DNA of 64,000 nucleotides, taken from assembly GCA_963603285.1 (NCBI GenBank), contig CAVCMG010000012.1, positions 12,791 through 76,790 on the forward strand, read 5' to 3'. A program made the translations under genes and the position numbers. Shown here one piece after another: positions 922 to 30,476 of the stretch. This DNA comes from Ruminococcus bromii. GTDB lineage: Bacteria > Bacillota > Clostridia > Lachnospirales > Lachnospiraceae. The notes beneath the pieces were generated by a model. That model did no database searches. It was not told where the DNA came from and saw only the letters and a list, made by a program, of their open reading frames with translations. Within the stretch, counting starts at the first letter, position 1; the number at the start of each line of letters is the position of its first letter.

Positions 922-967
922 AATAAAAAGGACCACCACTGAAGTTTTCTTTTACATGCTAAGGCAA
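922..967 (+). repeat. Copy 1 (most diverged) of a ~50-nt interspersed palindrome-containing element
   Basis: AATAAAAAGGACCACCACTGAAGTTTTCTTTTACATGCTAAGGCAA aligns with the copies at 8691, 9565(-) and 30155. It is followed by the hairpin at 973-1005. Confidence 0.6.
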
Positions 968-972
968 CAAAA

Positions 973-1005
973 GCGGAAGAAACGACAATATTTCATTTCT
1001 TCCGC
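973..1005 (-). terminator. Rho-independent terminator downstream of the MarR gene
   Basis: GCGGAAGAAA...TTTCTTCCGC stem directly after the stop of the minus-strand ORF at 1022. Confidence 0.6.
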
Positions 1006-1737: not shown

Positions 1738-2364
1738 ATGGAAATATCATCAGCACTGTCATCCTCTGAAAATTGTTTCGAGTTGTATGCACATAATTCA
1801 AGTCTGACTTGTTTATTCGGGTCTATTAATTCATCAGTGGACTATGACAAAGAAACCGGGGAAATCCTTACGGCTTCATCCATTCTGGACATCAACGAGG
1901 AAAAGATCCGGGAAGAGGAAGCCCTGGATGGTTACTATATGCTCCTGACCAGTGAAATGGACACACCAGACGATGAGATCATTGACATATATCGCGGACT
2001 GTGGCGCATCGAAGAATCCTTCAAAGTAACGAAAAGTGAATTGGAAGCAAGACCTGTATATGTCTGGACAAAAGAACATATCGAAGCGCATTTCCTGACT
2101 TGTTTTGTTGCCCTGACAATAGCAAGGATACTGGAAAACAAACTTGGGCAAAAATACAGTATCGGAGCAATCCTTTAGTCCCTGTCCAAAGCAGAATGCA
2201 GTCTGGTTCAGCAAAACTATTATCTATTCGATTATTATGATGAAGTACTAAGAGATATCGGATTGATTTTGGATATTGATTTTGAAAAACGTATTCGAAC
2301 TTTAGGAGAAATAAAAAAAATTTTGGCAATGACAAAAAAGCCAAAAAACACCATGAAAAAATGA
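1738..2364 (+). pseudogene. C-terminal remnant of an IS1634/IS4-like DDE transposase with an in-frame stop
   Basis: DGYYMLLTSE...IIDIYRGLWRIEESFKVTKSELEARPVYVWTKEHIEAHFLTCFVAL is a typical transposase C-terminus. A TAG at 2176-2178 interrupts a frame that continues to 2364. The N-terminal ~two thirds and any inverted repeats are absent. Confidence 0.6.
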
Positions 2365-2376
2365 CAAAACGGAAAA

Positions 2377-3926: not shown

Positions 3927-4961
3927 ATGAACGATCCATACGAACTTGCAAAAACAATATTGCAGTCTGCTGATGCGCTGGAAAGCGCAGAAACTGAAGC
4001 GTCTGCCGGTGGGGAGTTTACCAGCATTGACCTGTACGGAGCGGCTGTTCACGAAAAACAGGAAGCCAGCAAAGAAGCTGCCCGTTTCCATCTGGAAAAT
4101 GAGAGCGGAACGGGCGATATCACTCTGTATCAGGTTTTTCCCGGAATCGAGCTGGTCTACAATGATATGCACATGGCGTACTGTAACCGCCAGCAGCAGC
4201 CTGCCTCGGCAGTTATGGAGATCAATTACTGCAAAGAGGGCCGCAGTGAATGTCTGTTTGGAGAGAACCAGTACTGTTATATGGCTTCGGGCGATCTGTC
4301 GTTCTGCTCATTGCAGGAGCAGGCGCACCAGTCGGAGTTCCCGACGGCCCACTATCATGGCATCACAGTCACCATCGATTTTTCTGCGGTCACGGAGGAG
4401 ATGAAAAAGATCCTGACGTTGCTTTCTGTGGATCTGAATCGTATCAAAGCACTGGCACAGATGCAGGATTTTACCCTGATCCGGGCCAATCAGACCGTGG
4501 AGCATATTTTTTCCGAGCTGTACAGGGTGCCAGACAATATCCGGCATGGCTATATCCGTGTCAAGATGCTGGAGCTTCTGCTGGTACTGACGGAGCTTCA
4601 GCCGGAGCAGGAAAGAGATAAAAGGGCGCATTTCACCGGCGTACAGATCGAGACGGTCAAGCAGATCCACCATTTTCTTGTGGAACATTATGCAGAGCAT
4701 TATACGATCGATACGCTTGCAGAACAGTTTGATATGTCGCCAACGGTGATGAAAAAATGTTTCCGCGGCATTTACGGAGAATCTATCTATGCCTATATGA
4801 AACAGTATCGGCTGCAGGTGGCCGAGAGATTATTAAAGGAGAGCAGTCTGACGGTTGGTGAGATCGCAGCACAGATCGGCTATCTGAATCAGAATAAATT
4901 CACTTCGGCTTTCTGCGCTGCGTATGGTGTACCGCCGACGGAATACCGCAAAAAGAGCTGA
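3927..4961 (+). CDS. AraC-family transcriptional regulator
   Basis: C-terminal double HTH (YTIDTLAEQFDMSPTVMKKCFR...VGEIAAQIGYLNQNKFTSAF). AAGGAG RBS. Confidence 0.85.
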   Translation: MNDPYELAKTILQSADALESAETEASAGGEFTSIDLYGAAVHEKQEASKEAARFHLENESGTGDITLYQVFPGIELVYNDMHMAYCNRQQQPASAVMEINYCKEGRSECLFGENQYCYMASGDLSFCSLQEQAHQSEFPTAHYHGITVTIDFSAVTEEMKKILTLLSVDLNRIKALAQMQDFTLIRANQTVEHIFSELYRVPDNIRHGYIRVKMLELLLVLTELQPEQERDKRAHFTGVQIETVKQIHHFLVEHYAEHYTIDTLAEQFDMSPTVMKKCFRGIYGESIYAYMKQYRLQVAERLLKESSLTVGEIAAQIGYLNQNKFTSAFCAAYGVPPTEYRKKS

Positions 4962-5136
4962 AACAGACATGAGGGGGAAAGTGTCCGATGCCCGGAACGC
5001 TGTTGAAAGTATAAGAGAAGTCCGAATGGATAGAAAACAGCCTGTTCAGTCATTGTAATTTCAAATCCGATTTTTTAGAATGAGTGTTGTTAGAAAATGC
5101 TAACAACACTTTTTTATGTATAGGAGGACATTTCTC

Positions 5137-6930
5137 ATGCAAAAAGATTCTGAAATTTCCAGAATGTTTCGCTATGCGGGAAACCGGCACTGGCTGACGA
5201 TCCTTGGCATGATCCTGGCCGGAATCAGTACGGTGCTGTCGATGATTCCCTTTGTGTGCATCTGGTTTGTTGTACAGGATATGGTCAAAGCGCTTGGTGC
5301 AGGAGATATCCGTCTGGCGTCTGGCAGTACAGCGTATGCCTGGTGGGCCGTCGGATTTTCCGTACTGAGTATTCTGCTGTATTTTGCAGCGCTGTGCTGC
5401 TCGCATCTGGCAGCTTTCCGTACGGCAACAAACATGAAAAAGGCAGCCATGCACCATATTGTCACACTGCCGCTGGGCTATTTCAGTCAGAACGCCAGCG
5501 GACGACTGCATAAGGTTGTCGATGACAATGCCGGACTGACGGAAAACTTTCTGGCACATCAGCTGCCGGATCTGACGGGCGCTGTGGTCATGCCGGTGGC
5601 TGTGATCGTTCTGATCTTTGTGTTTGACTGGCGGTTAGGGCTTTGCTGTCTTGTTCCGCTGGCACTCAGCGTCTATTTTCTGAAACAGATGATGGGCGGT
5701 GACAATGCACATTTTATGGAAGGCTATATGAAAGCGCTGGAGACGATGAACAAGGAGGCTGTGGAATATATCCGTGGTATCCCGGTCGTCAAGGTATTCC
5801 AGCAGACCGTATATTCCTTTAAAAACTTCCATGCAGCGATTGAAGAATATGAAAAATATGCTTCCGGCTATGCGCTGAAATGCCGTATACCGCTGACCGG
5901 CTTTAATGTGGCTTTAAACGGCACGTTTATCCTGCTGATCCCGGTGGCATGTCTGATCTTTGCAGGAGCCAGCGGACAGGCCGGTTACCAGAAACTGTTT
6001 CTGGATTTCCTATTTTACAGCCTGTTTACACCGGTATGTGCGACGATGATGAACCGCGTAATGTTTGCCAGCGAGCAGCTGATGGCGGCCAAAAGTGCTG
6101 TGAACCGGATCGAAGAGATCTTAAACGAGCAGCCGCTGGCAGAGGCAAAGGAGCCGAAACAGCCGGTGGATGCTTCTGTAGCGTTTGAATACGTTTCCTT
6201 TGCCTATGATGGGGCAAAAGACAAGGCACTGGATGATATTTCCTTTGCAATCCCGGCAGGAAAAACGGTGGCTCTTGTGGGTGCTTCCGGCAGCGGAAAA
6301 TCCACAGCGGCGAAGCTGATCCCGTGGTTTTACGATGTGACCGGCGGCCGTGTATTGCTTGGCGGTGTCGATGTACGGGATATGGATAAACGTACCCTGA
6401 TGCATCAGATCGCCTTTGTATTCCAGAATACAAAGCTGTTTAAGGATACTTTGCTTGAAAATATCCGTGCAGCCAGACCGGAGGCTTCCAGAGAAGAGGT
6501 GCTGGCGGCGGTACGGGCTGCCCAGTGTCAGGAGATCATCGACCGGCTGCCACAGGGGCTGGATACCATGGTAGGTGCCGGTGGTACATATCTGTCCGGT
6601 GGTGAAAACCAGAGAATCGCACTGGCAAGAGCTATTTTAAAGGATGCGCCGGTGATCGTGCTGGATGAGGCAACCGCTTTTGCGGATGCGGAGAACGAGC
6701 ACCAGATCCAGCTGGCTTTTGAAAAGCTGACACAGAATAAGACCGTGCTTATGATCGCACATCGTCTTTCCACGATCCAGAATGCAGATCTGATCCTGGT
6801 ATTTGATGAAGGTAAGATTATCGAAAGAGGTACACACGATGCATTGCTGGAAAAACATGGCAGATATGCGTCCATGTGGCAGGAATATCAGACGTCGATT
6901 GCATGGAAAGTCGGAAAGGAGGCAAAATAA
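5137..6930 (+). CDS. ABC exporter, fused permease/ATPase (heterodimer partner 1)
   Basis: Six-TM N-terminal half. Walker A GASGSGKST, signature LSGGENQR, Walker B VIVLDEAT. Start moved to the ATG at 5137 behind an AGGAGGA RBS. Confidence 0.9.
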   Translation: MQKDSEISRMFRYAGNRHWLTILGMILAGISTVLSMIPFVCIWFVVQDMVKALGAGDIRLASGSTAYAWWAVGFSVLSILLYFAALCCSHLAAFRTATNMKKAAMHHIVTLPLGYFSQNASGRLHKVVDDNAGLTENFLAHQLPDLTGAVVMPVAVIVLIFVFDWRLGLCCLVPLALSVYFLKQMMGGDNAHFMEGYMKALETMNKEAVEYIRGIPVVKVFQQTVYSFKNFHAAIEEYEKYASGYALKCRIPLTGFNVALNGTFILLIPVACLIFAGASGQAGYQKLFLDFLFYSLFTPVCATMMNRVMFASEQLMAAKSAVNRIEEILNEQPLAEAKEPKQPVDASVAFEYVSFAYDGAKDKALDDISFAIPAGKTVALVGASGSGKSTAAKLIPWFYDVTGGRVLLGGVDVRDMDKRTLMHQIAFVFQNTKLFKDTLLENIRAARPEASREEVLAAVRAAQCQEIIDRLPQGLDTMVGAGGTYLSGGENQRIALARAILKDAPVIVLDEATAFADAENEHQIQLAFEKLTQNKTVLMIAHRLSTIQNADLILVFDEGKIIERGTHDALLEKHGRYASMWQEYQTSIAWKVGKEAK

Positions 6931-8675
6931 TGCGAAAACTTTTTCAGAAGAAATATGCGCTGAGTGAACAGGGCGCAAAAGATCTCTGCAAAGGAATCCT
7001 CTATTCCATTCTGGCATATATCAGTCTGATGCTTCCGGTGGCACTGCTGGCCTGCGTATTGCAGGTATTTCTGGCCGGTGTGCTGGGTGAAAGTGGACAG
7101 CCGGTGTCTGCAGCATTGTATACAGAAATCGGAATCGTGATTCTTGTGATCATCTTTATTATGCATTATCTGCAGTATACGGTAACGTATATGGGCACCT
7201 ATGAAGAGAGTGAGCGTCGCAGGATCTCGCTGGCGGAAAAGTTAAGAACCATGCCGCTTCGGTTCTTTCAGGAGTATGATCTGTCGGACCTGACAGCTAC
7301 GATCATGGGAGACTGTGCCGGATTTGAACATGCCTTTTCCCATACTGTGCCGCAGTTCTGGGGCTCGATCATTTCCACGGCGATCGTGTGCGTGGTACTG
7401 CTCATCTACGACTGGCAGATGGGACTGGCACTTTTGTGGGTGGCTCCGGTGTCCTTTGCCATTGTACTGCTGTCCAGAAAGCTCCAGGAAAAGCTGGGCA
7501 GAAAGCATATGGCGGCAAGGCTTACGCTGGCCGAGGGTATCCAGGAGTGTCTGGAGACCGTGCAGGATATCAAAGCCTGCAGTCTGGAAGAAACGTATCT
7601 GAAAAAGCTGGATGCCAAGATGGATGCCGCGGAGAAAGCCCAGATTTCTTCGGAAATGCTGACGGCCAGCCTTGTAACGACCGGTCAGATGTTTCTGCGT
7701 CTGGGTCTGGCAACCGTTATTATCGTCGGAAATGTTCTGATGGTACACCAGCAGACAACGCTGTTTGCCTACATCCTGTTTCTTATCGCGGCTTCCCGGC
7801 TGTACGATCCGCTGTCCGGCGCCATGTCCAATATGGCAGAGCTGTTTTCTGTGGATCTGCAGGTTGGTCGTCTGAAAACGATCCAGAATTATAAGGAAGA
7901 GAAAAAGCAGACCACATATCAGACAGACGGCTATGATCTGACCTTTGACCATGTGGAATTTTCCTATGAGCCGGGTAAACCGGTGTTAAAGGATGTGTCC
8001 TTTACGGCAAAGCAGGGACAGGTAACGGCTCTGGTTGGTCCGTCAGGTGGCGGAAAGAGTACCGTGGCCAATCTGGCAGCCGGATTTTACGATGTAACGG
8101 GAGGAAAAATCACGCTGGGCGGTACGGATACACGGCCAATCGACGCCGTGGCCATGATGAAGGATTTCTCCATCGTGTTCCAGAATGTTGTCCTGTTCAA
8201 TAATACGGTCATGGAAAACTTACGTGTCGGCCGCAAAAATGCAACGGATGAAGAGGTGATCGCCGCAGCCCAAGCGGCCCATTGCCATGATTTTATCATG
8301 AAGCTGCCGCAGGGTTATGATACGGTGATTGGAGAGAACGGTTCCACACTGTCCGGTGGTGAGTGTCAGCGGCTTTCGATTGCCCGTGCGCTGTTAAAGG
8401 ATGCGCCGGTGATCATTCTGGATGAAGCAACAGCTTCGCTGGATGTGGACAATGAGACAGAGATCCAGGAGGCTATCTCACAGCTGATCAAGGGCAAGAC
8501 GGTTCTGATCATTGCGCACCGGATGCGTACCGTAGAGCATGCGGACAAGATCGTCGTTCTTGACGGCGGCGTTGTGGCAGAGAGTGGAACGAACGATGAG
8601 TTGTTGAAAAAGAATGGCCTGTATGCCCATCTGGTGGCTTTGCAGACCGCTTCTGCAGACTGGAAGCTGAACTAA
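6930..8675 (+). CDS. ABC exporter, fused permease/ATPase (heterodimer partner 2)
   Basis: Walker A GPSGGGKST, signature LSGGECQR, Walker B IILDEAT. The ATG overlaps the upstream stop (TAATG), which suggests translational coupling. Confidence 0.9.
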   Translation: MRKLFQKKYALSEQGAKDLCKGILYSILAYISLMLPVALLACVLQVFLAGVLGESGQPVSAALYTEIGIVILVIIFIMHYLQYTVTYMGTYEESERRRISLAEKLRTMPLRFFQEYDLSDLTATIMGDCAGFEHAFSHTVPQFWGSIISTAIVCVVLLIYDWQMGLALLWVAPVSFAIVLLSRKLQEKLGRKHMAARLTLAEGIQECLETVQDIKACSLEETYLKKLDAKMDAAEKAQISSEMLTASLVTTGQMFLRLGLATVIIVGNVLMVHQQTTLFAYILFLIAASRLYDPLSGAMSNMAELFSVDLQVGRLKTIQNYKEEKKQTTYQTDGYDLTFDHVEFSYEPGKPVLKDVSFTAKQGQVTALVGPSGGGKSTVANLAAGFYDVTGGKITLGGTDTRPIDAVAMMKDFSIVFQNVVLFNNTVMENLRVGRKNATDEEVIAAAQAAHCHDFIMKLPQGYDTVIGENGSTLSGGECQRLSIARALLKDAPVIILDEATASLDVDNETEIQEAISQLIKGKTVLIIAHRMRTVEHADKIVVLDGGVVAESGTNDELLKKNGLYAHLVALQTASADWKLN

Positions 8676-8690
8676 GTGGGAAAATGAACC

Positions 8691-8740
8691 CAATAAAAGG
8701 AACCTCCACTGGAGCTTTCTTTTATATGCTAAGGCAAAAA
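8691..8740 (+). repeat. Copy 2 of the ~50-nt interspersed element
   Basis: CAATAAAAGGAACCTCCACTGGAGCTTTCTTTTATATGCTAAGGCAAAAA is near-identical to the copy at 30155-30208. Confidence 0.75.
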
Positions 8741-8747
8741 GAAAAAA

Positions 8748-8782
8748 GGAGCAGATCTGGTAAAAGGATCTGCGTCCTTTTT
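8748..8782. terminator. Bidirectional Rho-independent terminator
   Basis: GGAGCAGATC...GATCTGCGTCC stem with an A-run upstream and a T-run downstream. Confidence 0.7.
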
Positions 8783-8795
8783 GCGCAGCATACCC

Positions 8796-8824
8796 TTGCA
8801 TTTTCTGTGAACAGACAGTATAAT
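8796..8824 (+). promoter_or_regulatory. Sigma-A-type promoter for the BMC gene pair
   Basis: TTGCAT, 17 nt, TATAAT. Confidence 0.6.
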
Positions 8825-8872: not shown

Positions 8873-9169
8873 ATGAGCAAGTATAATGGTGCAGCCGTAG
8901 GCGCATTCGAAGCAGACAGCTACCTTGTGTGCTGTGTAGCCATCGATGCCGCCGTCAAAGCAGCAGATGTCAAAGTAGAGGGAATCGAGAGAAACCGTTT
9001 AAAAAGCGGTGCCTGTGTAAAACTCCGTGGCCGTATCTCCGATATCAAAGCAGCTATGGAAGCCGCTGAAGAGGCTGCAAAGCGTCTGTCTCCGATCACC
9101 AAGTCCGTGATCATTCCGTCACCGACACCGGATACAGAGATCATGCTTGAGATGACCATCAATAAATAA
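8873..9169 (+). CDS. BMC-domain (microcompartment shell, BMC-H-like) protein
   Basis: AVGAFEA...AIDAAVKAADVKV...LRGRISDIKAAMEAAEEAA...VIIPSPTPDTE aligns by eye with PduA/EutM-type BMC domains. AGGAGGA RBS before the ATG at 8873. The 161-aa version in the ORF track is an artefactual extension. Confidence 0.8.
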   Translation: MSKYNGAAVGAFEADSYLVCCVAIDAAVKAADVKVEGIERNRLKSGACVKLRGRISDIKAAMEAAEEAAKRLSPITKSVIIPSPTPDTEIMLEMTINK

Positions 9170-9183
9170 GGCAAAGGAGAAGA

Positions 9184-9477
9184 GTGATGAAAGACGCAGC
9201 TTACGGATTAGTTGAAGTTTTGGGAAGCTCCAATGCCATTCTCTGTGTAGACAGGATGGTAAAGACTTCCGACGTATATTTTAAGACATGGAACGCCAAA
9301 TGTGGCGGCCACGTAACGATTTTTATGGCAGGTGATCTGTCTGCAGTCAATGCAGCGGTCAATACCGTAGCCGAGAATCCGCCGTGTGAGGTATTTTACA
9401 CAGCCGTTATCTCCAACCCGCATGAGGAAATGGTACGTTTTGTACAGGAGATGGCTGACAAGTTCCCGGGCAAATAA
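9184..9477 (+). CDS. BMC-domain (microcompartment shell, BMC-H-like) protein, divergent
   Basis: YGLVEVLGSSNAILCVDRMVKTSDV...MAGDLSAVNAAVNTV...AVISNPHEEMV. AAGGAGAAG RBS. Confidence 0.75.
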   Translation: MMKDAAYGLVEVLGSSNAILCVDRMVKTSDVYFKTWNAKCGGHVTIFMAGDLSAVNAAVNTVAENPPCEVFYTAVISNPHEEMVRFVQEMADKFPGK

Positions 9478-9534: not shown

Positions 9535-9564
9535 ATCCTGCCTGATGTTCAGGCAGGATTTTTT
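9535..9564 (+). terminator. Rho-independent terminator after the BMC pair
   Basis: ATCCTGCCTG...CAGGCAGGAT stem plus TTTTTT. Confidence 0.75.
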
Positions 9565-9608
9565 GACTTAGCATATAAAAGGAAGCTCCAGTTGAGATTT
9601 TTTGTTAA
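9565..9608 (-). repeat. Copy 3 of the ~50-nt interspersed element (reverse orientation)
   Basis: The reverse complement reads GTTAACAAAAAATCTCAACTGGAGCTTCCTTTTATATGCTAAGTC. It lies between the terminator and the ClC gene start. Confidence 0.65.
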
Positions 9609-9652
9609 CGAAAGAGGGAAAACGGCAGACCGACTGCCGAAAAGAGAGAAAA

Positions 9653-10978
9653 ATGATGCAGGATAATAAAAATTCACTGAAGGAAGTGTGGCATGTGGGC
9701 AGACACATGGCGGGGCATATGGCTTTAAAGCTGGCTGCCTGTGCCCACTGGATCGTACTGGCGATCGTGACAGGGCTTGTCGTGGGCGCTTACAGTACGC
9801 TGTTTGCCTGGATGCTGGGAAAAGCAACCGGCTACAGAAGCCAGTATCCGTGGCTGTTGTTTCTGCTGCCCCTGGGCGGTGTGCTGATTGTGGCGATGTA
9901 CCGTGGTGCAAAGGTCATGACCGACCGGGGAACGAATCTGGTAATCAATTCGATCCATGCCAAGGATGAGGTTCCCGGGGCAATGGCGGTACTGATCTTT
10001 GTATCAACCATCATCACGCATATGTTTGGCGGTTCTGCCGGACGAGAGGGCGCGGCCCTGCAGATGGGCGGAAGCCTTGGCAACGTACTGGCCCGGCTGT
10101 TAAAGAAAAATGAGGAGCATACGCGCATTCTGATCATGTGTGGTATGAGTGCGGCCTTTGCCGCTGTGTTTGGAACACCGATGGCTGCGGCGGTCTTTTC
10201 CATGGAGGTTATCAGTGTAGGTATCATGCATTATTCAGCGCTGGTGCCGTGTATGTTTGCGTCTCTGGTAGCTTCCCGGTTTGCGGCAACTATGGGGATT
10301 GCACCGGAAGAGTTTCATATCCTGTCCATCCCGGAGCTGACGGTGGTAACGGGCATAAAGATGTGTCTGCTGGCGGTATGCTGTGCAGCGCTGAGTATTG
10401 CTTTTTGTATGCTGTTGCATATGACCGGACATCTGTACCGGCAGTATCTGAAAAATCCGTATATCCGGGTGCTCGTCGGCGGCTGTATCATCATTGTCTT
10501 GACGCTGTTTGTCGGAAACATGGATTACAACGGCGCAGGCAATCAGCTGATCGAGCGGGCGATCGAGGGCGAGACAGTCCCGGTGGCTTTTCTGCTGAAA
10601 ATGCTGTTTACGGCGCTGACGCTTGGCGCGGGATTTAAAGGCGGCGAGATCGTGCCGAGCTTTACGATCGGAGCTACCTTTGGTTGTCTGTTCGGCCAGT
10701 TGATCGGTTTGTCCCCGTCCCTGTGTGCGGCAGTGGCGATGGCTTCTGTCTTCTGCGGCGTGACCAACTGCCCGATCACGACACTTCTGATCAGCTTTGA
10801 GCTGTTCGGCTTTGCGGGCGTGCCGTATTTTATGATCGCGATTTCTGTGAGCTATCTGCTGTCTGGTTACAAGGGACTCTACAGTGACCAGATCATCGTG
10901 TATTCCAAGTATCGTCCGCATTTTATCAACCGCCATGTCGGGGATGAATCCGAGGACGATCTGATCGATAATGACTGA
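9653..10978 (+). CDS. ClC-family voltage-gated chloride channel / H+-Cl- antiporter
   Basis: GSAGREGAALQMGG and GFKGGEIVPSFTIGA selectivity-filter-like motifs in a multi-TM protein. The start is uncertain (ATG at 9653 chosen; weak RBS). Confidence 0.85.
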   Translation: MMQDNKNSLKEVWHVGRHMAGHMALKLAACAHWIVLAIVTGLVVGAYSTLFAWMLGKATGYRSQYPWLLFLLPLGGVLIVAMYRGAKVMTDRGTNLVINSIHAKDEVPGAMAVLIFVSTIITHMFGGSAGREGAALQMGGSLGNVLARLLKKNEEHTRILIMCGMSAAFAAVFGTPMAAAVFSMEVISVGIMHYSALVPCMFASLVASRFAATMGIAPEEFHILSIPELTVVTGIKMCLLAVCCAALSIAFCMLLHMTGHLYRQYLKNPYIRVLVGGCIIIVLTLFVGNMDYNGAGNQLIERAIEGETVPVAFLLKMLFTALTLGAGFKGGEIVPSFTIGATFGCLFGQLIGLSPSLCAAVAMASVFCGVTNCPITTLLISFELFGFAGVPYFMIAISVSYLLSGYKGLYSDQIIVYSKYRPHFINRHVGDESEDDLIDND

Positions 10979-11089: not shown

Positions 11090-12181
11090 GTGGGAAAGAT
11101 TATATTAACCGGTGACAGACCGACAGGCAGACTGCATGTGGGACATTATGTAGGTTCTTTAAGAAGACGTGTAGAGCTGCAGAATTCCGGAGATTACGAA
11201 AAGGTTCTGATCATGATCGCCGATGCACAGGCGCTGACCGATAACTTTGATAATCCGGAGAAGATCAGACAGAATATCATCGAGGTAGCGCTGGATTATC
11301 TTTCCGTCGGACTTGATCCGAAAAAATCCACTCTGTTTATCCAATCCATGGTACCGGAGCTGACAGAGATGACGTTTTACTATATGAATCTGGTGACCGT
11401 ATCCCGTCTGCAGCGAAACCCAACAGTGAAATCGGAGATCCAGCAGCGCAACTTTGAAGCCAGTATTCCAGTCGGTTTCTTCTGTTATCCGATCAGCCAG
11501 GCTGCTGATATCACAGCATTCAAGGCGACAACCGTACCGGTTGGCGAGGATCAGCTGCCGATGCTCGAGCAGACCAGAGAGATCGTCCGTAAGTTCAACA
11601 GCATTTACGGTGAGACGCTGGTTGAACCGGATGTATTGTTGCCGGACAACGAAGCCTGCAAGCGTCTGCCGGGTATTGACGGTATGGCAAAGATGAGCAA
11701 ATCTCTTGGCAACTGTATCTACCTTGCCGATGATCCGGAGGATGTTCGTAAAAAGATTATGAGCATGTACACCGATCCGCTGCATATCCAGGTATCCGAT
11801 CCGGGCCATATCGAGGGCAATACCGTATTTACCTATCTGGATGCCTTCTGCAAGACGGAGCATTTTGCTGAGTTCTGGCCGGAATATGCAAACCTTGACG
11901 AAGTTAAGGAGCATTACCAGAGAGGCGGTCTTGGCGATGTTAAGGTCAAGAAGTTCCTGAACAAGATCATCCAGGCAGAGCTTGAGCCGATCCGTGCCCG
12001 CCGTAAAGAGTACGAAAAGGATATCCCGGCCGTATACGAGATCCTCAAAGAGGGCAGCGAAAAGGCCCGCGCGATCGCCGCACAGACACTGGATGAGATG
12101 AAGAAATCCATGAAGATCAATTACTTTGACGATATGGAGCTGATCAAGGCACAGGCTGAGAAGTATAAGGGTATTGAATAA
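11090..12181 (+). CDS. trpS: Tryptophan--tRNA ligase
   Basis: Class I motifs: HVGH ([11 protein letters not shown]) and KMSKS (KMSKSLGN). GTG start behind a GGAGG RBS. Confidence 0.9.
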
Positions 12182-12201
12182 AATTATAGTGTGAAAATGA
12201 A

Positions 12202-12240
12202 CTGCCGCAGGAGAAAATGAAACCTCTGCGGCAGTTTTTT
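12202..12240 (+). terminator. Rho-independent terminator of trpS
   Basis: CTGCCGCAG...CTGCGGCAG stem plus TTTTTT. Confidence 0.75.
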
Positions 12241-12406
12241 GTGGGCAGATACAGGAAAAGCTGTTGTGTAGTTTTGCATACAGAACGGATGAAGGGATAG
12301 ATCGTATCTGGCAGAAGCATGGTTTCAAATACAGAAAAATGGAGATTTACAGAAAAATCTCTTGTGTATCGGATTGTCTTATGATAAAATATATCGGTAA
12401 CAGCGA

Positions 12407-12490
12407 GCCGGTGTGTTGGAATTGGCAGACGAGACGGACTCAAAATCCGTTGGTGGTAACACCGTGCGGGTTCGACCCCCGCCACCGGCA
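12407..12490 (+). tRNA. tRNA-Leu (anticodon CAA)
   Basis: Acceptor GCCGGTG/CACCGGC. Anticodon stem-loop ACGGA-CTCAAAA-TCCGT. Long variable arm. T-arm GCGGG-TTCGACC-CCCGC. Discriminator A; CCA is not encoded. Confidence 0.9.
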
Positions 12491-12494
12491 GTAG

Positions 12495-12526
12495 AAAAGC
12501 CCCTTGATTTGTCAAGGGGCTTTTTT
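12495..12526. terminator. Bidirectional terminator shared by tRNA-Leu and the convergent cbiZ-like gene
   Basis: AAAAGCCCCTTGA...TCAAGGGGCTTTTTT. Confidence 0.8.
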
Positions 12527-13645
12527 GTCACTGTTTGCCAGCGCAATATATAAAATCAGAAGTGCCATCAGCTGTTCTTTTAAAGAAAAATGCTGTTTTT
12601 CCAGAAGTGCCCACGCTTCTGTTGGATAAGCATCTCCTAAAAACTGCCCCTTTTTCCAATATAATCCACGGCATAATACCCGTGTGCCCTCACGCAAAGC
12701 GTCAGCCTCCATGACCAGATTCCAGCGTGTCTGATCCATCAGATGGACATACAGGGAGATACATTGCACAAGGTTGCGTCCGCGGTTGTACATCAGAAGA
12801 AGCTGCTCCATGGCTGATACAGTATCAAAATGGATATGAAGAGCCTCGAAAAAATCCTGATGGGCAAGATAAAATTCCCAGATAGTGCCGTTGGTGATGC
12901 CGAATCTGGAAATACGTTCAGATATCTGCAGCTGTCGTGGGCCGCAGGCACCAGTCTGCTTAAGCAGCGCCTCTTTTACCGCTGCTTTTACAGTTTTACC
13001 AATCAATTCACCGAGTTTGGAATGCCCGGAGGCATCTGTCAGGGTCAGGGTTCCTTCCATGGAAGACGCAATCACTGTGCCATCTGTGCCGGATCCTGTG
13101 GCAATTTCCTCTGAATAACAGCTGCGAATGAGCAATTCGGAAACAGCTGCAGCCTTGGCTTCGGAGCAGACAACGAGGGCACGGGTCATGGCGGCGTCAG
13201 TCAGCTCTTGATTAATATAAAGAAAAATATTGATCGTGCCGGGTGGCAACATTTCATAGTGGCCGTTTTCTTCATAGTAACTGGAGGGATCACCAGCACT
13301 CATGGCATTATGGTCAATACCACCTGTCGCATAGGCGGTCACAGAAAGCTCTCTGTACTGTAAAGTCTGAACAGCTGCCAGTTCTGTCCAGGCTGCTGTG
13401 CTGAGTGCGGTAGTTGTGGAAGGATCCAGTCCCATGGAACGTGTATGGATGGACAGATCTTCTTCATAGGTATCGCCAAGCAGATCGCAGGTATAGGATC
13501 CGTTCAGACAGTCAATATTTAAAGCATGTGTCAGATGGGTCGTCAGACCGCCGTTTAACGGACTTGTACTGAGTACTTTGGTTTTTCCGGGAAAGGTAAA
13601 GAGCGTGTTTCCCTGTTTCTGGGTACAGATAAAAGATGATTGCAT
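12512..13645 (-). CDS. CbiZ-like (adenosylcobinamide amidohydrolase family) protein with a ~140-aa C-terminal extension
   Basis: N-terminal ~235 aa resemble CbiZ (VLSTSPLNGG..., GTINIFLYIN..., ATGSGTDG). AAAGGAG RBS. The extension has no motif I recognise. Confidence 0.55.
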   Translation of the reverse strand: MQSSFICTQKQGNTLFTFPGKTKVLSTSPLNGGLTTHLTHALNIDCLNGSYTCDLLGDTYEEDLSIHTRSMGLDPSTTTALSTAAWTELAAVQTLQYRELSVTAYATGGIDHNAMSAGDPSSYYEENGHYEMLPPGTINIFLYINQELTDAAMTRALVVCSEAKAAAVSELLIRSCYSEEIATGSGTDGTVIASSMEGTLTLTDASGHSKLGELIGKTVKAAVKEALLKQTGACGPRQLQISERISRFGITNGTIWEFYLAHQDFFEALHIHFDTVSAMEQLLLMYNRGRNLVQCISLYVHLMDQTRWNLVMEADALREGTRVLCRGLYWKKGQFLGDAYPTEAWALLEKQHFSLKEQLMALLILYIALANSDKKAP

Positions 13646-13848
13646 GATACTCCTTTGAATTGTCAGATATATGGCATGTAGTTTTTGACAGTCACAATGG
13701 CTGTCAGGAATATCTGTATTATGCTGGATTTGGAGGAAAAATACAAGCGGTGTGCAGAAGAAAAGCTCTGCAGTCAGCCAGCAGATACAGCTGGTGAAAG
13801 CAGAGCCTTTATTTGCGCGAGTAACGAGCCAATAGTTATGTGCTATTG

Positions 13849-29056: not shown

Positions 29057-30001
29057 TTATTTATTATTAGAAGCTGACCGCGCATAAATATTCGCCAGCA
29101 CAGCCCCCGAAACATTATGCCATACACTGAACACAGCCCCCGGAATCGTAGCCAGTGGATACTGTGCAAAATGCGTAGCCGCCAGAGACGTAGCCAGCCC
29201 AGAATTCTGCATACCAACCTCGATCGAAATCGCACGGCACTTCGTAGAATCCAGCTTCAAAACCTTACCGATACAGTAGCCCAGCGTATATCCCAGCACA
29301 TTATGCAGAATAACAACAGCCAGGATCAGAAGACCAGAAGTCATGATCTTCGCAGAGTTTGCAGAAACAACAGCAGCCACGATCGCCACGATCGCCGTAG
29401 TAGAGATCAGCGGCAGCACCTCCACAGCCTTCTCCGTAAATTTGGAGAAAAAATGATTCACAATAAATCCAAGAACAATCGGAACAATCACAACCTTTAC
29501 GATCGAAAGGAACATGCTCAACATATTGACACTGACCTTCTCACCCGCATACAGATACGTCAGAAACGGTGTCAGAAACGGCGCCAGCACCGTAGAAACA
29601 GCCGTCATACCAACAGACAGCGCCACATCACCCTTGGACAGATACGTCATAACATTCGAAGATGTACCGCCCGGGCAGGTACCCACAAGGATAACACCAA
29701 TAGCCAGTTCCGGCGGCAGCTGGAACACCTTTGTCAGTCCGAAGGCCAGAAGTGGCATAACTGTAAACTGTGAAACACAGCCGATCACAACATCCTTAGG
29801 ACGGCTGAAAACAACCTTGAAATCATGCGGCTTTAACGTAAGTCCCATACCAAACATAACGATGCCAAGCAGCGTATTGACATAGCTCGTCTTGATAAAG
29901 CTGACCGTATTCGGTGCAAATAAAGCAAGCGCAGCCATGGCGATAACGATAACAGCCATGTACTTGCTGACAAAATTCGTGATCTTCTTTAAAACTTCCA
30001 T
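29057..30001 (-). CDS. BASS/SBF-family (bile acid:Na+ symporter family) transporter
   Basis: GMGLTLKPHDF, GTCPGGTSSNVMTY and EVGMQNSGLA family motifs. Start at the ATG at 30001 behind an AAGGAGAAG RBS. Confidence 0.85.
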   Translation of the reverse strand: MEVLKKITNFVSKYMAVIVIAMAALALFAPNTVSFIKTSYVNTLLGIVMFGMGLTLKPHDFKVVFSRPKDVVIGCVSQFTVMPLLAFGLTKVFQLPPELAIGVILVGTCPGGTSSNVMTYLSKGDVALSVGMTAVSTVLAPFLTPFLTYLYAGEKVSVNMLSMFLSIVKVVIVPIVLGFIVNHFFSKFTEKAVEVLPLISTTAIVAIVAAVVSANSAKIMTSGLLILAVVILHNVLGYTLGYCIGKVLKLDSTKCRAISIEVGMQNSGLATSLAATHFAQYPLATIPGAVFSVWHNVSGAVLANIYARSASNNK

Positions 30002-30154: not shown

Positions 30155-30208
30155 AATAATAAAAGAAACCTCCACTGGAGCTTTCTTTTATATGCTAAGG
30201 CAAAAAAA
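30155..30208 (+). repeat. Copy 4 of the ~50-nt interspersed element, inside the 5' UTR of the BASS gene (antisense to it)
   Basis: AATAATAAAAGAAACCTCCACTGGAGCTTTCTTTTATATGCTAAGGCAAAAAAA. It directly abuts the T-box terminator hairpin at 30209-30237. Confidence 0.75.
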
Positions 30209-30476
30209 GCCTCTGTCTCCATACAAGAGACAAAGGCCAAACCTCTGCGGTACCACTCTTCTTGCTGTAAAAAATACAGCCACTCACATCCACATCTGAC
30301 AATGGGAAACAGGATAACGACTGTTACTCGTCCGGACTTACGCGGTAAATCTTTCAGTCCGAAAGCTCAGAGGTGATTTTCACTGAAGATTCAACACTGC
30401 CTCTCACCAAAAGCGGCAGCTCTCTGTGGAATCCCCTTCAGGTACTCTTCCTCGTCATTGCGAAACATCTGAAGTT
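30200..30476 (-). promoter_or_regulatory. T-box riboswitch leader, probable Ile (AUC) specifier
   Basis: On the minus strand: GA/K-turn and AGUA (UGACGAGGAAGAGUA), AGAGAG box, distal GGUGAGA loop, specifier loop UGAAA-AUC-A, Stem III hairpin, T-box AGAGUGGUACCGCAGAGG, then terminator GCCUUUGUCUC...GAGACAGAGGC + U7. Confidence 0.85.

Follow-up and report, generated by a model that had tools for sequence, protein, structure and literature searches.

A short AT-rich repeat set in one orientation against transcription terminators in gut Lachnospiraceae

Introduction

How does a stretch of about 47 bp come to lie at four places in a bacterial contig, each time with the same end turned towards a different hairpin? 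The question arises from a 64,000-nucleotide stretch of DNA (the window, which here means the whole of the sequence analysed), in which the initial annotation recorded a palindrome-containing repeat docked onto terminator hairpins and proposed that it could be a REP/BOX-like interspersed repeat, a terminator-targeting miniature insertion element, a protein-binding site or the 5′ module of small RNAs. Comparison with related genomes shows independent insertions beside pre-existing hairpins, with a fixed polarity and a neutral-looking decay. The explanation preferred here, at a probability of roughly 60%, is an undescribed, lineage-restricted and non-autonomous mobile repeat with terminator-edge targeting that decays after insertion; on the best reading, the closest kind of known repeat is that of SPRITE and REP.

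Should the docking reflect a true target preference, the element would be a compact natural mobile DNA that finds safe harbours by way of terminators, a recognition strategy that has so far been documented mainly for class C group II introns, and such targeting would point to a hairpin-recognising enzyme in gut Lachnospiraceae. Should it be only a decaying low-copy repeat, it belongs to the ordinary natural history of genomes. The element is a marker of recent intergenic change, and it can mislead the prediction of terminators, small RNAs and ORFs (the copies have a common peptide, STGAFFYMLRQK).

Copies of the element in the window

The consensus of the element is AATAAAAGRAACCTCCACTGGAGCTTTCTTTTATATGCTAAGGCAA, an AT-rich sequence of ~47 bp (the GC content of the copies is 0.30-0.39). 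Its 26-nt degenerate core, ACTGRAGYTTYCTTTTAYATGCTAAG, is matched four times in the window (936-963 +, 8706-8733 +, 9567-9594 - and 30172-30199 +), where no match is expected, and not once in 100 shuffled sequences. A search with nhmmer and one with a covariance model, the latter with filters off, recovered the same four copies and no others in the 64 kb. The pattern, nhmmer and the covariance model thus agree on the four copies that had been claimed, with limits slightly refined by reading the sequence and the alignment (Table 1). No further copy lies in the ~5 kb past the right end of the window, which makes four copies in ~69 kb of genome, all inside the first 30 kb. All of the copies are intergenic. 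In the alignment c2 and c4 are near-identical and consensus-like and c1 and c3 are diverged, as had been noted before.

Table 1. Copies of the element, adjoining hairpins and the T-box in the window
Feature	Position	Strand	Remarks
Copy c1	922-967	+	Old, diverged, AATAAAAAGGACCACCACTGAAGTTTTCTTTTACATGCTAAGGCAA; covariance model 66.1 bits
GC-rich hairpin at c1	973-1005		GCGGAAGAAA...TTTCTTCCGC, then TTTTGTTG on the minus strand; stem predicted on both strands
Copy c2	8692-8737	+	Young, consensus-like; 80 bits
Bidirectional terminator-like hairpin of the ABC operon	8743-8782		A-run, stem 8748-8777, T-run; 8751-8773 in the terminator listing
BMC-operon terminator	9535-9559	+	ATCCTGCCTGATGTTCAGGCAGGAT then TTTTTTGA; from alignments and the terminator listing
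Copy c3	9563-9608	-	Old; 61.8 bits
Copy c4	30158-30203	+	Young, consensus-like; 82.6 bits
T-box leader terminator hairpin	30209-30237	-	GCCTTTGTCTC TTGTATG GAGACAGAGGC, then TTTTTTT on the minus strand
T-box	30223-30467	-	Rfam RF00230, 123.9 bits, full model covered

Several readings of the repeat as a coding or regulatory sequence were tried and set aside. The element is non-coding, in agreement with the initial annotation, as no start codon is conserved and the residues of the apparent peptide beyond MLRQK depend on the adjoining hairpin and differ with each one. A promoter reading fails on the spacing of the reverse-strand TATAAA and TTGACT-like hexamers, which are only 5 nt apart, and none of the sigma-70, sigma-54 or sporulation-sigma arrangements fits either strand by eye or in a computed check. 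The consensus sequences of dif/Xer, parS, attC and known operators do not fit either, and a likeness of ACCTCC...TTTCT...TAAGG to the 3′ end of 16S rRNA is judged to be coincidental. In Rfam, the T-box and a tRNA are the sole matches of the whole window at gathering score, and a search of two of the copies at E = 10 gave chance hairpin matches only; the element thus matches no RNA family.

Occurrence in related genomes

Scans of public DNA found the element in relatives, and it is therefore not unique to the window. Six more loci and one half copy are present in related gut Lachnospiraceae assemblies. Strict matches were obtained in one of 185,579 GTDB species representatives, an uncultured Lachnospiraceae metagenome-assembled genome (MAG) from a Hadza gut (CAKRQV01), which has three loci, in dapA, nrdD and ABC-F neighbourhoods that are unlike those of the window. 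A metagenome scan produced three matching contigs, one of them orthologous to a MAG locus, and neither a scan of viral contigs nor blastn against plasmids and phages gave a relevant match. The half copy (L025 1385-1405, minus strand) is a weak model match in which only TATATGCTAAGTCAAAAAAA is found, beside another hairpin, the palindromic half being missing. As to the setting of the window itself, a 4.7-kb stretch is 100% identical to the MAG GCA_963639125.1, and the BASS protein shares 86% identity with its counterpart in [Clostridium] symbiosum.

The element is confined to a narrow group of gut Lachnospiraceae, and its copy number looks very low, unlike that of REP systems. Young copies that are nearly identical are found in two species at positions that are not orthologous, beside diverged old copies, a distribution that fits sporadic activity of a conserved source.

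Docking on terminators

The four GC-rich stem-loops that had been reported next to the copies exist and are mutually unrelated, and the one at c4 is the terminator of a full-length T-box on the minus strand (RF00230), as had been described; this hairpin is conserved in L017, L020 and L023. The hairpin at c1 is the terminator common to the convergent DUF169 and MarR-like genes. The association with terminators held in the added copies, since at each of the six extra loci the element is followed by 1-8 A-rich bases and then by another unrelated hairpin. Overall, ten loci have ten unrelated adjoining hairpins, and the outer flanks are unrelated too.

At every locus the GCTAAGGCAA end of the element lies 1-8 nt from the A-run and foot of a different GC-rich hairpin. 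This end faces the hairpin in 10 of 10 independent copies and in the half copy, and the chance of a uniform polarity in all ten is 2 x 0.5^10, or ~0.002. On the strand opposite the element at least 5 T are found in the 8 nt after the stem at every hairpin, so that all of the hairpins would terminate transcription coming from the other side; after the T-rich tract this strand reads (G/A)(C/A)CTTAGCATATAAAAG... On the element's own plus strand, three of nine hairpins (c4, L001 and L006) have no T-tract. From polarity and T-tracts together, the common denominator of the insertion sites is the outer edge of a terminator T-tract, in one orientation.

The gene context of the copies is mixed. With the neighbours annotated by Pfam, c1 lies between the convergent DUF169 (70-843 +) and MarR-like (1022-1570 -) genes, and c2 follows the stop codon of the second ABC-transporter gene (6930-8675) and precedes the terminator of that gene. 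Copy c3 adjoins the T-tract of the BMC-operon terminator on its downstream side, with the ClC gene starting 48 nt further on (9656), and c4, when read on the minus strand, comes directly after the T-tract of the T-box terminator, within the leader of a gene for a BASS-family transporter (29057-30001 -). At c1, c2, L002, L003 and L004 the element is placed between a stop codon and the terminator of the same gene, and in L003 and L004 it begins at the stop codon of the upstream gene. At c3, c4, L001 and L006 it follows the terminator of the upstream unit and precedes the genes for ClC, BASS, dapA and an unnamed gene, respectively. Five of nine copies are found directly after a stop codon or between convergent genes. 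The earlier placement of two copies in transporter leaders holds in that they stand ahead of ClC and BASS; both genes lie opposite the element's plus strand, however, and the element follows the T-tract of the upstream unit. This mixed transcription context points to recognition at the level of DNA and not to a role in one transcript.

The same observations bear on the proposal that small RNAs have the element as their conserved 5′ module and are terminated by the neighbouring hairpins. A hairpin does always come next, and a weak GGAG-N11-ATG is present inside the element. The upstream flanks are unrelated, however, with no conserved promoter; at c4, L001 and L006 a T-tract is missing after the hairpin on the strand of the element; hairpins such as those of the T-box and the BMC operon are parts of other units; the elements in L003 and L004 begin at an upstream stop codon; and the structure decays uncompensated (see below), with Rfam empty over the copies. 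This part of the initial annotation is rejected, with next to no probability left to it.

It is also conceivable that the repeat is untargeted and that the docking is a matter of survivorship, selection having spared those copies that fell into the harmless gap beside a terminator. Regions downstream of coding sequences tolerate repeats, which is the reason given for the enrichment of SPRITE, BOX and RUP there (PMC3049150), and a compact bacterial genome has few other neutral sites. A filter of this kind does not predict a fixed polarity in 10 of 10 copies, nor a spacing of 1-8 nt from the foot of the stem, and c3, c4, L001 and L006 occupy promoter or leader space upstream of genes, which is not the most neutral location. 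Selective survival of untargeted insertions is therefore considered unlikely.

Empty sites in relatives

Orthologous loci in relatives, gathered by way of the BMC-domain protein (exact look-up), the ABC-transporter protein and the BASS protein, show that c2, c3 and c4 are each missing in some of them, which was the presence/absence check that had been proposed for the element. The look-up with the BMC protein separates two lineages, one of 95-100%-identical contigs with c2 and c3 and one of ~84%-identical contigs with neither. The latter lineage still has the BMC-operon terminator (ATCCTGCCTGAT.T.CAGGCAGGATTTTTTGA). Orthologues of c3 are found in L009, L013, L015, L016, L025, L027, L033 and L034, and c3 is absent in L007, L008, L010, L011 and L012. 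L027 and L028, gathered with the ABC-transporter protein (93% amino acid identity), have c3 and are without c2; there the site consists of the stop codon, 18 nt, AAAGAAAAG, a homologous hairpin and then the BMC promoter, the A-run being kept. In L020-L022 (BASS at 94% amino acid identity) c4 is absent: the T-box is retained, as are its terminator (GAGACAGAGGCTTTTTT) and the distal leader up to the start codon, and 35 unrelated bases take the place of the 77 bases of the window that hold c4. For c1 an exact look-up with the DUF169 protein returned no record.

As relatives keep the same terminators and flanks without the element, these alignments show that the hairpins at c2, c3 and c4 came first. 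Judged from presence and absence in sequences that are 84-94% identical, with insertion boundaries good to a few bases only, c3 is old and c2 and c4 are younger, each being an indel set against a resident terminator.

The pattern of empty sites also bears on the reading of the element as a site of recombination or the border of a cassette, comparable to attC or pdif, in which the inverted c2 and c3 bracket a mobile BMC cassette and the single copies mark other points of exchange. The two copies, c2(+) and c3(-), do flank exactly the promoter-to-terminator block of the BMC operon; the neighbourhood is highly plastic, with differences such as the AraC-ABC-ABC block and the histidine kinase gene of L025; and lineages with ~84% identity in DNA have BMC1 proteins that are 100% identical. 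Yet the ~84% lineage has the BMC operon at the same place without the element, L027 has c3 without c2, the remaining copies are solitary, no recombinase gene is nearby, and neither inverted nor excised variants were seen (22 BMC1-carrying contigs read, 10 inspected). An invertible c2/c3 segment was likewise discarded, as no inverted variants occur among the related contigs. A cassette boundary is thus highly improbable.

The plasticity of the region is seen in several further differences between lineages. The AraC regulator and two ABC-exporter genes (window 3927-8675 +) are an insertion relative to the L007/L014 lineage and lie between Endonuclease_NS_2 and the BMC operon, in a very plastic neighbourhood. 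In L025, a relative at 98% identity, the interval from ABC2 to BMC also contains a gene for a hybrid histidine kinase (12063-13802) and has another terminator. The slot after the T-box terminator differs in every lineage examined; in L017 (~1090-1480) and L019 the slot of c4 is filled by ~400 nt with five different strong hairpins (in L017, for example, CAAGCAAGTCCCC...GGGACTTGCTTG and ATCAGGAGTGG...CCACTCCTGAT), just 3′ of the T-box terminator or its replacement. This hairpin array could be another inserted repeat or a structured leader.

Decay of the hairpin

In c2 and c4 the element is predicted to form, on either strand, a stem of 14 bp, interrupted by a single C.C mismatch and capped by a 3-nt loop (z about -5), followed by UUUUAUAU on the plus strand or UUUUAUUAUUU on the minus strand. 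Copies c1 and c3 no longer fold and have mostly lost the palindrome, and the internal palindrome first ascribed to the element as a whole thus stands for the two young copies. The orthologues of c3 in the window, L013, L025 and L027 reveal a stepwise loss of the stem: the L027 copy still has the consensus arm GGAGGTTTCTTTTAT, and the copies in the window, L013 and L025 have a common 2-nt deletion along with various substitutions that destroy the hairpin. In L013 the copy of c2 has a 4-nt deletion (ATGC lost), and that of c3 has one substitution in the terminator-proximal half. Compensatory changes were found at none of the 14 pairs in 11 sequences, and 500 of 500 shuffles scored at least as well. 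Loss of the stem without compensation indicates that the palindrome is a property of the source sequence and not an RNA or DNA structure maintained at the sites of insertion. As far as the aligned sequences can tell, the inserted copies undergo a neutral-looking decay, with no apparent selection on structure.

The two halves of the element are not equally well kept. In the old copies 2 of 38 positions differ in the terminator-proximal half versus 12 of 54 in the palindrome (counted by eye), and the right half, CTTTTAYATGCTAAG, is invariant in all 10 full-length loci, c1 and c3 included, the L013 orthologue of c2 having its deletion there. The better preservation of the terminator-proximal half hints at some constraint or directional truncation beyond simple neutral decay.

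On these grounds the element could be regarded as a functional cis element coupled to terminators, with the proximal half, CTTTTAYATGCTAAGKCAA, as a putative protein-binding site or an enhancer of termination or 3′-end stability, and with copies kept because they adjust termination or the read-through that reaches genes such as ClC and BASS. Such a role would agree with the strict position and polarity relative to terminators, with the invariance of the right half even in the old copies c1 and c3, with the half copy in L025, which retains just the proximal part beside another terminator, and with the two copies between a terminator and the start of a transporter gene. Against it, the proximal half itself has been hit by the deletion and the substitution in L013, close relatives run the same terminators and genes without the element, the loci differ in whether the element is transcribed and from which side, there is neither covariation nor a known RNA family, and the flanking genes have no common function. 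A maintained function of this kind is doubtful. The protein-binding site of the initial annotation stays a candidate reading, for which the TATATGCTAAGGCAA half would be the site. The mobile repeat preferred here accounts for the copies as insertions that are not kept by selection.

Comparison with known repeats and mobile elements

By appearance and genomic habit the closest described match is SPRITE of Streptococcus pneumoniae. SPRITE repeats are AT-rich and terminator-like, are present at 30 per S. pneumoniae genome near the 3′ ends of genes, and have no clear target-site duplication and no known transposase, being found in one species group (PMC3049150). The element described here is likewise a small AT-rich Firmicute repeat with one long duplex of A/T arms followed by a U-rich tract, which gives it a terminator-like form; it is apparently low in copy number, enriched near the 3′ ends of coding sequences and lineage-restricted, with no clear duplication and no known transposase. 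It is much smaller than SPRITE, and it is set beside SPRITE by description and not by sequence, homology to the pneumococcal repeat being unlikely at such a phylogenetic distance. Further, it replaces no terminator and instead docks 1-8 nt from a resident one in a single polarity, and between its hairpin and that of the terminator it has a further conserved stretch, the 16-nt linker ATATGCTAAGGCAA. New relative to SPRITE are how very small the element is, its additional linker and its strict docking on resident terminators in a single polarity.

REP and REPIN sequences resemble the element in being short (20-50 nt) imperfect extragenic palindromes with a conserved unpaired flank (PMC2817692, PMC3116915, PMC3337134), in lying at the 3′ ends of genes and between convergent genes, in being non-autonomous and free of target-site duplications, and in having a single-hairpin size that is compatible only with recognition of a folded single strand. 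REPs are GC-rich, mostly proteobacterial and present in more than 100 copies, often as inverted doublets or BIMEs, with a 5′ GTAG, and they flank a RAYT gene (PMC2817692, PMC3116915, PMC3337134). Here, in contrast, the hairpin is AT-rich and the copies apparently number from single digits to tens; no GTAG is located 5′ of the stem, and the conserved unpaired flank is the 3′ linker; no RAYT is found among the ORFs of the window or the neighbours in the MAG; and the only inverted pair, c2 and c3, is 825 bp apart around two BMC-domain genes, with no close inverted doublets seen. The element is not a REP, given that it is AT-rich, without GTAG and apparently low in copy number, with no RAYT seen.

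The target of the element recalls that of class C (IIC) group II introns. These introns insert behind an intrinsic-terminator motif, which consists of an inverted repeat and a run of Ts, and do so in a fixed orientation (PMC1702495). They are ribozymes of ~0.7-2 kb with domains I-VI that begin with GUGYG and usually contain an ORF for a reverse transcriptase. Similarly, the element follows an inverted repeat and a T-run in a fixed orientation in 10 of 10 copies, most clearly at the T-box and BMC terminators. Unlike these introns, it is 47 nt long and has no intron domains; no match to Intron_gpII or another Rfam family was obtained even at E = 10, and the window has no reverse transcriptase. 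The resemblance to class C introns is in the target only, and the element is not an intron.

MITEs usually measure 80-500 bp, have their terminal inverted repeats in common with a parent IS and generate target-site duplications (PMC10969869). Like members of this kind (BOX, RUP, Correia, bcr1) the element is non-autonomous, intergenic, lineage-restricted and variably present, and it has inverted arms that form a hairpin (PMC10969869). It differs in its length of 47 bp, in arms that are only 3 nt apart, in its asymmetry (the extra 3′ linker) and in that no duplication is seen. The arms can be read as inverted repeats, and no parent IS with the ends of the element was found in the window, the loci, plasmids, phages or viral contigs. 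Among the readings first proposed, the REP/BOX-like repeat and the terminator-targeting miniature insertion gain support from variable presence, from the loci in a second species, from the polarity of 10 in 10 and from decay.

Possible mode of mobility

A mobilising gene was sought near the copies. The 52 long ORFs of the window include no Y1/HUH transposase, reverse transcriptase or integrase by Pfam, and no mobilising gene is present among the ten ORFs that flank copies in the fetched MAG loci; both sets consist of ordinary metabolic, transport and regulatory genes. A tblastn search with IS200 TnpA gave no match, which is a weak test, as the query was approximate. The sole trace of a transposase in the window is a truncated DDE_Tnp_1 pseudogene (1738-2178), unrelated to the element. 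It is part of an IS remnant at 1738-2365 (+) that corresponds to the C-terminal part of DDE_Tnp_1, with the frame broken after 2178, and it is located at a break in synteny, where relatives have MGS and MerR upstream of Endonuclease_NS_2 and the window has DUF169 and MarR.

A target-site duplication was likewise not found, either in a longest-common-substring test of own flanks against cross flanks (p = 0.17) or at the empty sites. A-rich matches that resemble duplications at c2, c3 and L001 are not significant. At c3 the apparent repeat of 9 nt arose by later mutations, and the match at L001 is due to a single SNP, which the orthologue L005 lacks.

Since no mobilising gene was found, the way of moving is read from anatomy, that is, from the single hairpin, the short conserved linker, the length of ~47 nt and the lack of a duplication. 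A single hairpin with a short linker is the format of the substrates of HUH single-strand transposases, such as REP/RAYT and the ends of IS200/IS605 (PMC2817692, PMC3116915). The most likely route would be mobilisation in trans by an enzyme encoded elsewhere in the genome, which would read the folded single-stranded hairpin together with the short linker in the way of REP/RAYT or of an IS200/IS605-type HUH transposase. New copies would arise rarely. Each would be placed in one polarity only, bordering on its outer side the T-tract of a Rho-independent terminator that is already present (an A-run when the other strand is read), at a distance of 1-8 nt from the base of the stem and with no detectable target-site duplication. 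The target would be the signature of a hairpin plus a T-run, to which class C group II introns also home. After insertion, substitutions and small deletions destroy the element's own 14-bp hairpin, the copy not being kept by selection. While young, a copy adds a second, weak, bidirectional terminator-like hairpin beside the resident terminator. The element places such an extra hairpin in the T-box-controlled BASS leader and ahead of the ClC channel gene.

A more specific proposal, which is tentative, is that of an ultra-small single-hairpin element of Clostridia that actively homes to the distal edge of the T-tract in one polarity through a trans-acting enzyme. This enzyme would read "hairpin plus T-run" in single-stranded DNA and leave no target duplication, and the terminator-proximal 16-nt linker would be its recognition or guide sequence. 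The system could then be a DNA counterpart of class C group II intron targeting or a REP/RAYT-like system of Firmicutes that targets terminators.

Genes adjoining the copies

Some features of the genes next to the copies are recorded here in their own right. Between c2 and c3, the window at 8873-9169 and 9187-9477 (+) holds an operon of two genes for BMC-domain proteins (microcompartment shell), an orphan in that its vicinity has no microcompartment enzymes. Its promoter is placed at ~8796-8824 and its terminator at 9535-9559. The operon is directly upstream of the ClC channel gene (9656-10978) in every lineage seen, and BMC1 has the same protein sequence (100% identity) in lineages whose DNA is only ~84% identical. 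The stretch from the BMC terminator to the start codon of ClC yielded no convincing promoter for this gene. A small GC hairpin at 9623-9639, CGGCAGACCGACTGCCG, lies just ahead of the ClC ribosome-binding site; it is terminator-like on the minus strand, where TTTTCCC follows, yet no minus-strand gene ends there.

The other transporter next to a copy, the T-box-controlled BASS/SBF protein, bears the family name "bile acid:sodium symporter". In L017 and L018 the gene next to it encodes a chorismate mutase / shikimate kinase fusion, and this neighbour suggests that the substrate of the transporter is aromatic amino acid-related and not bile acids.
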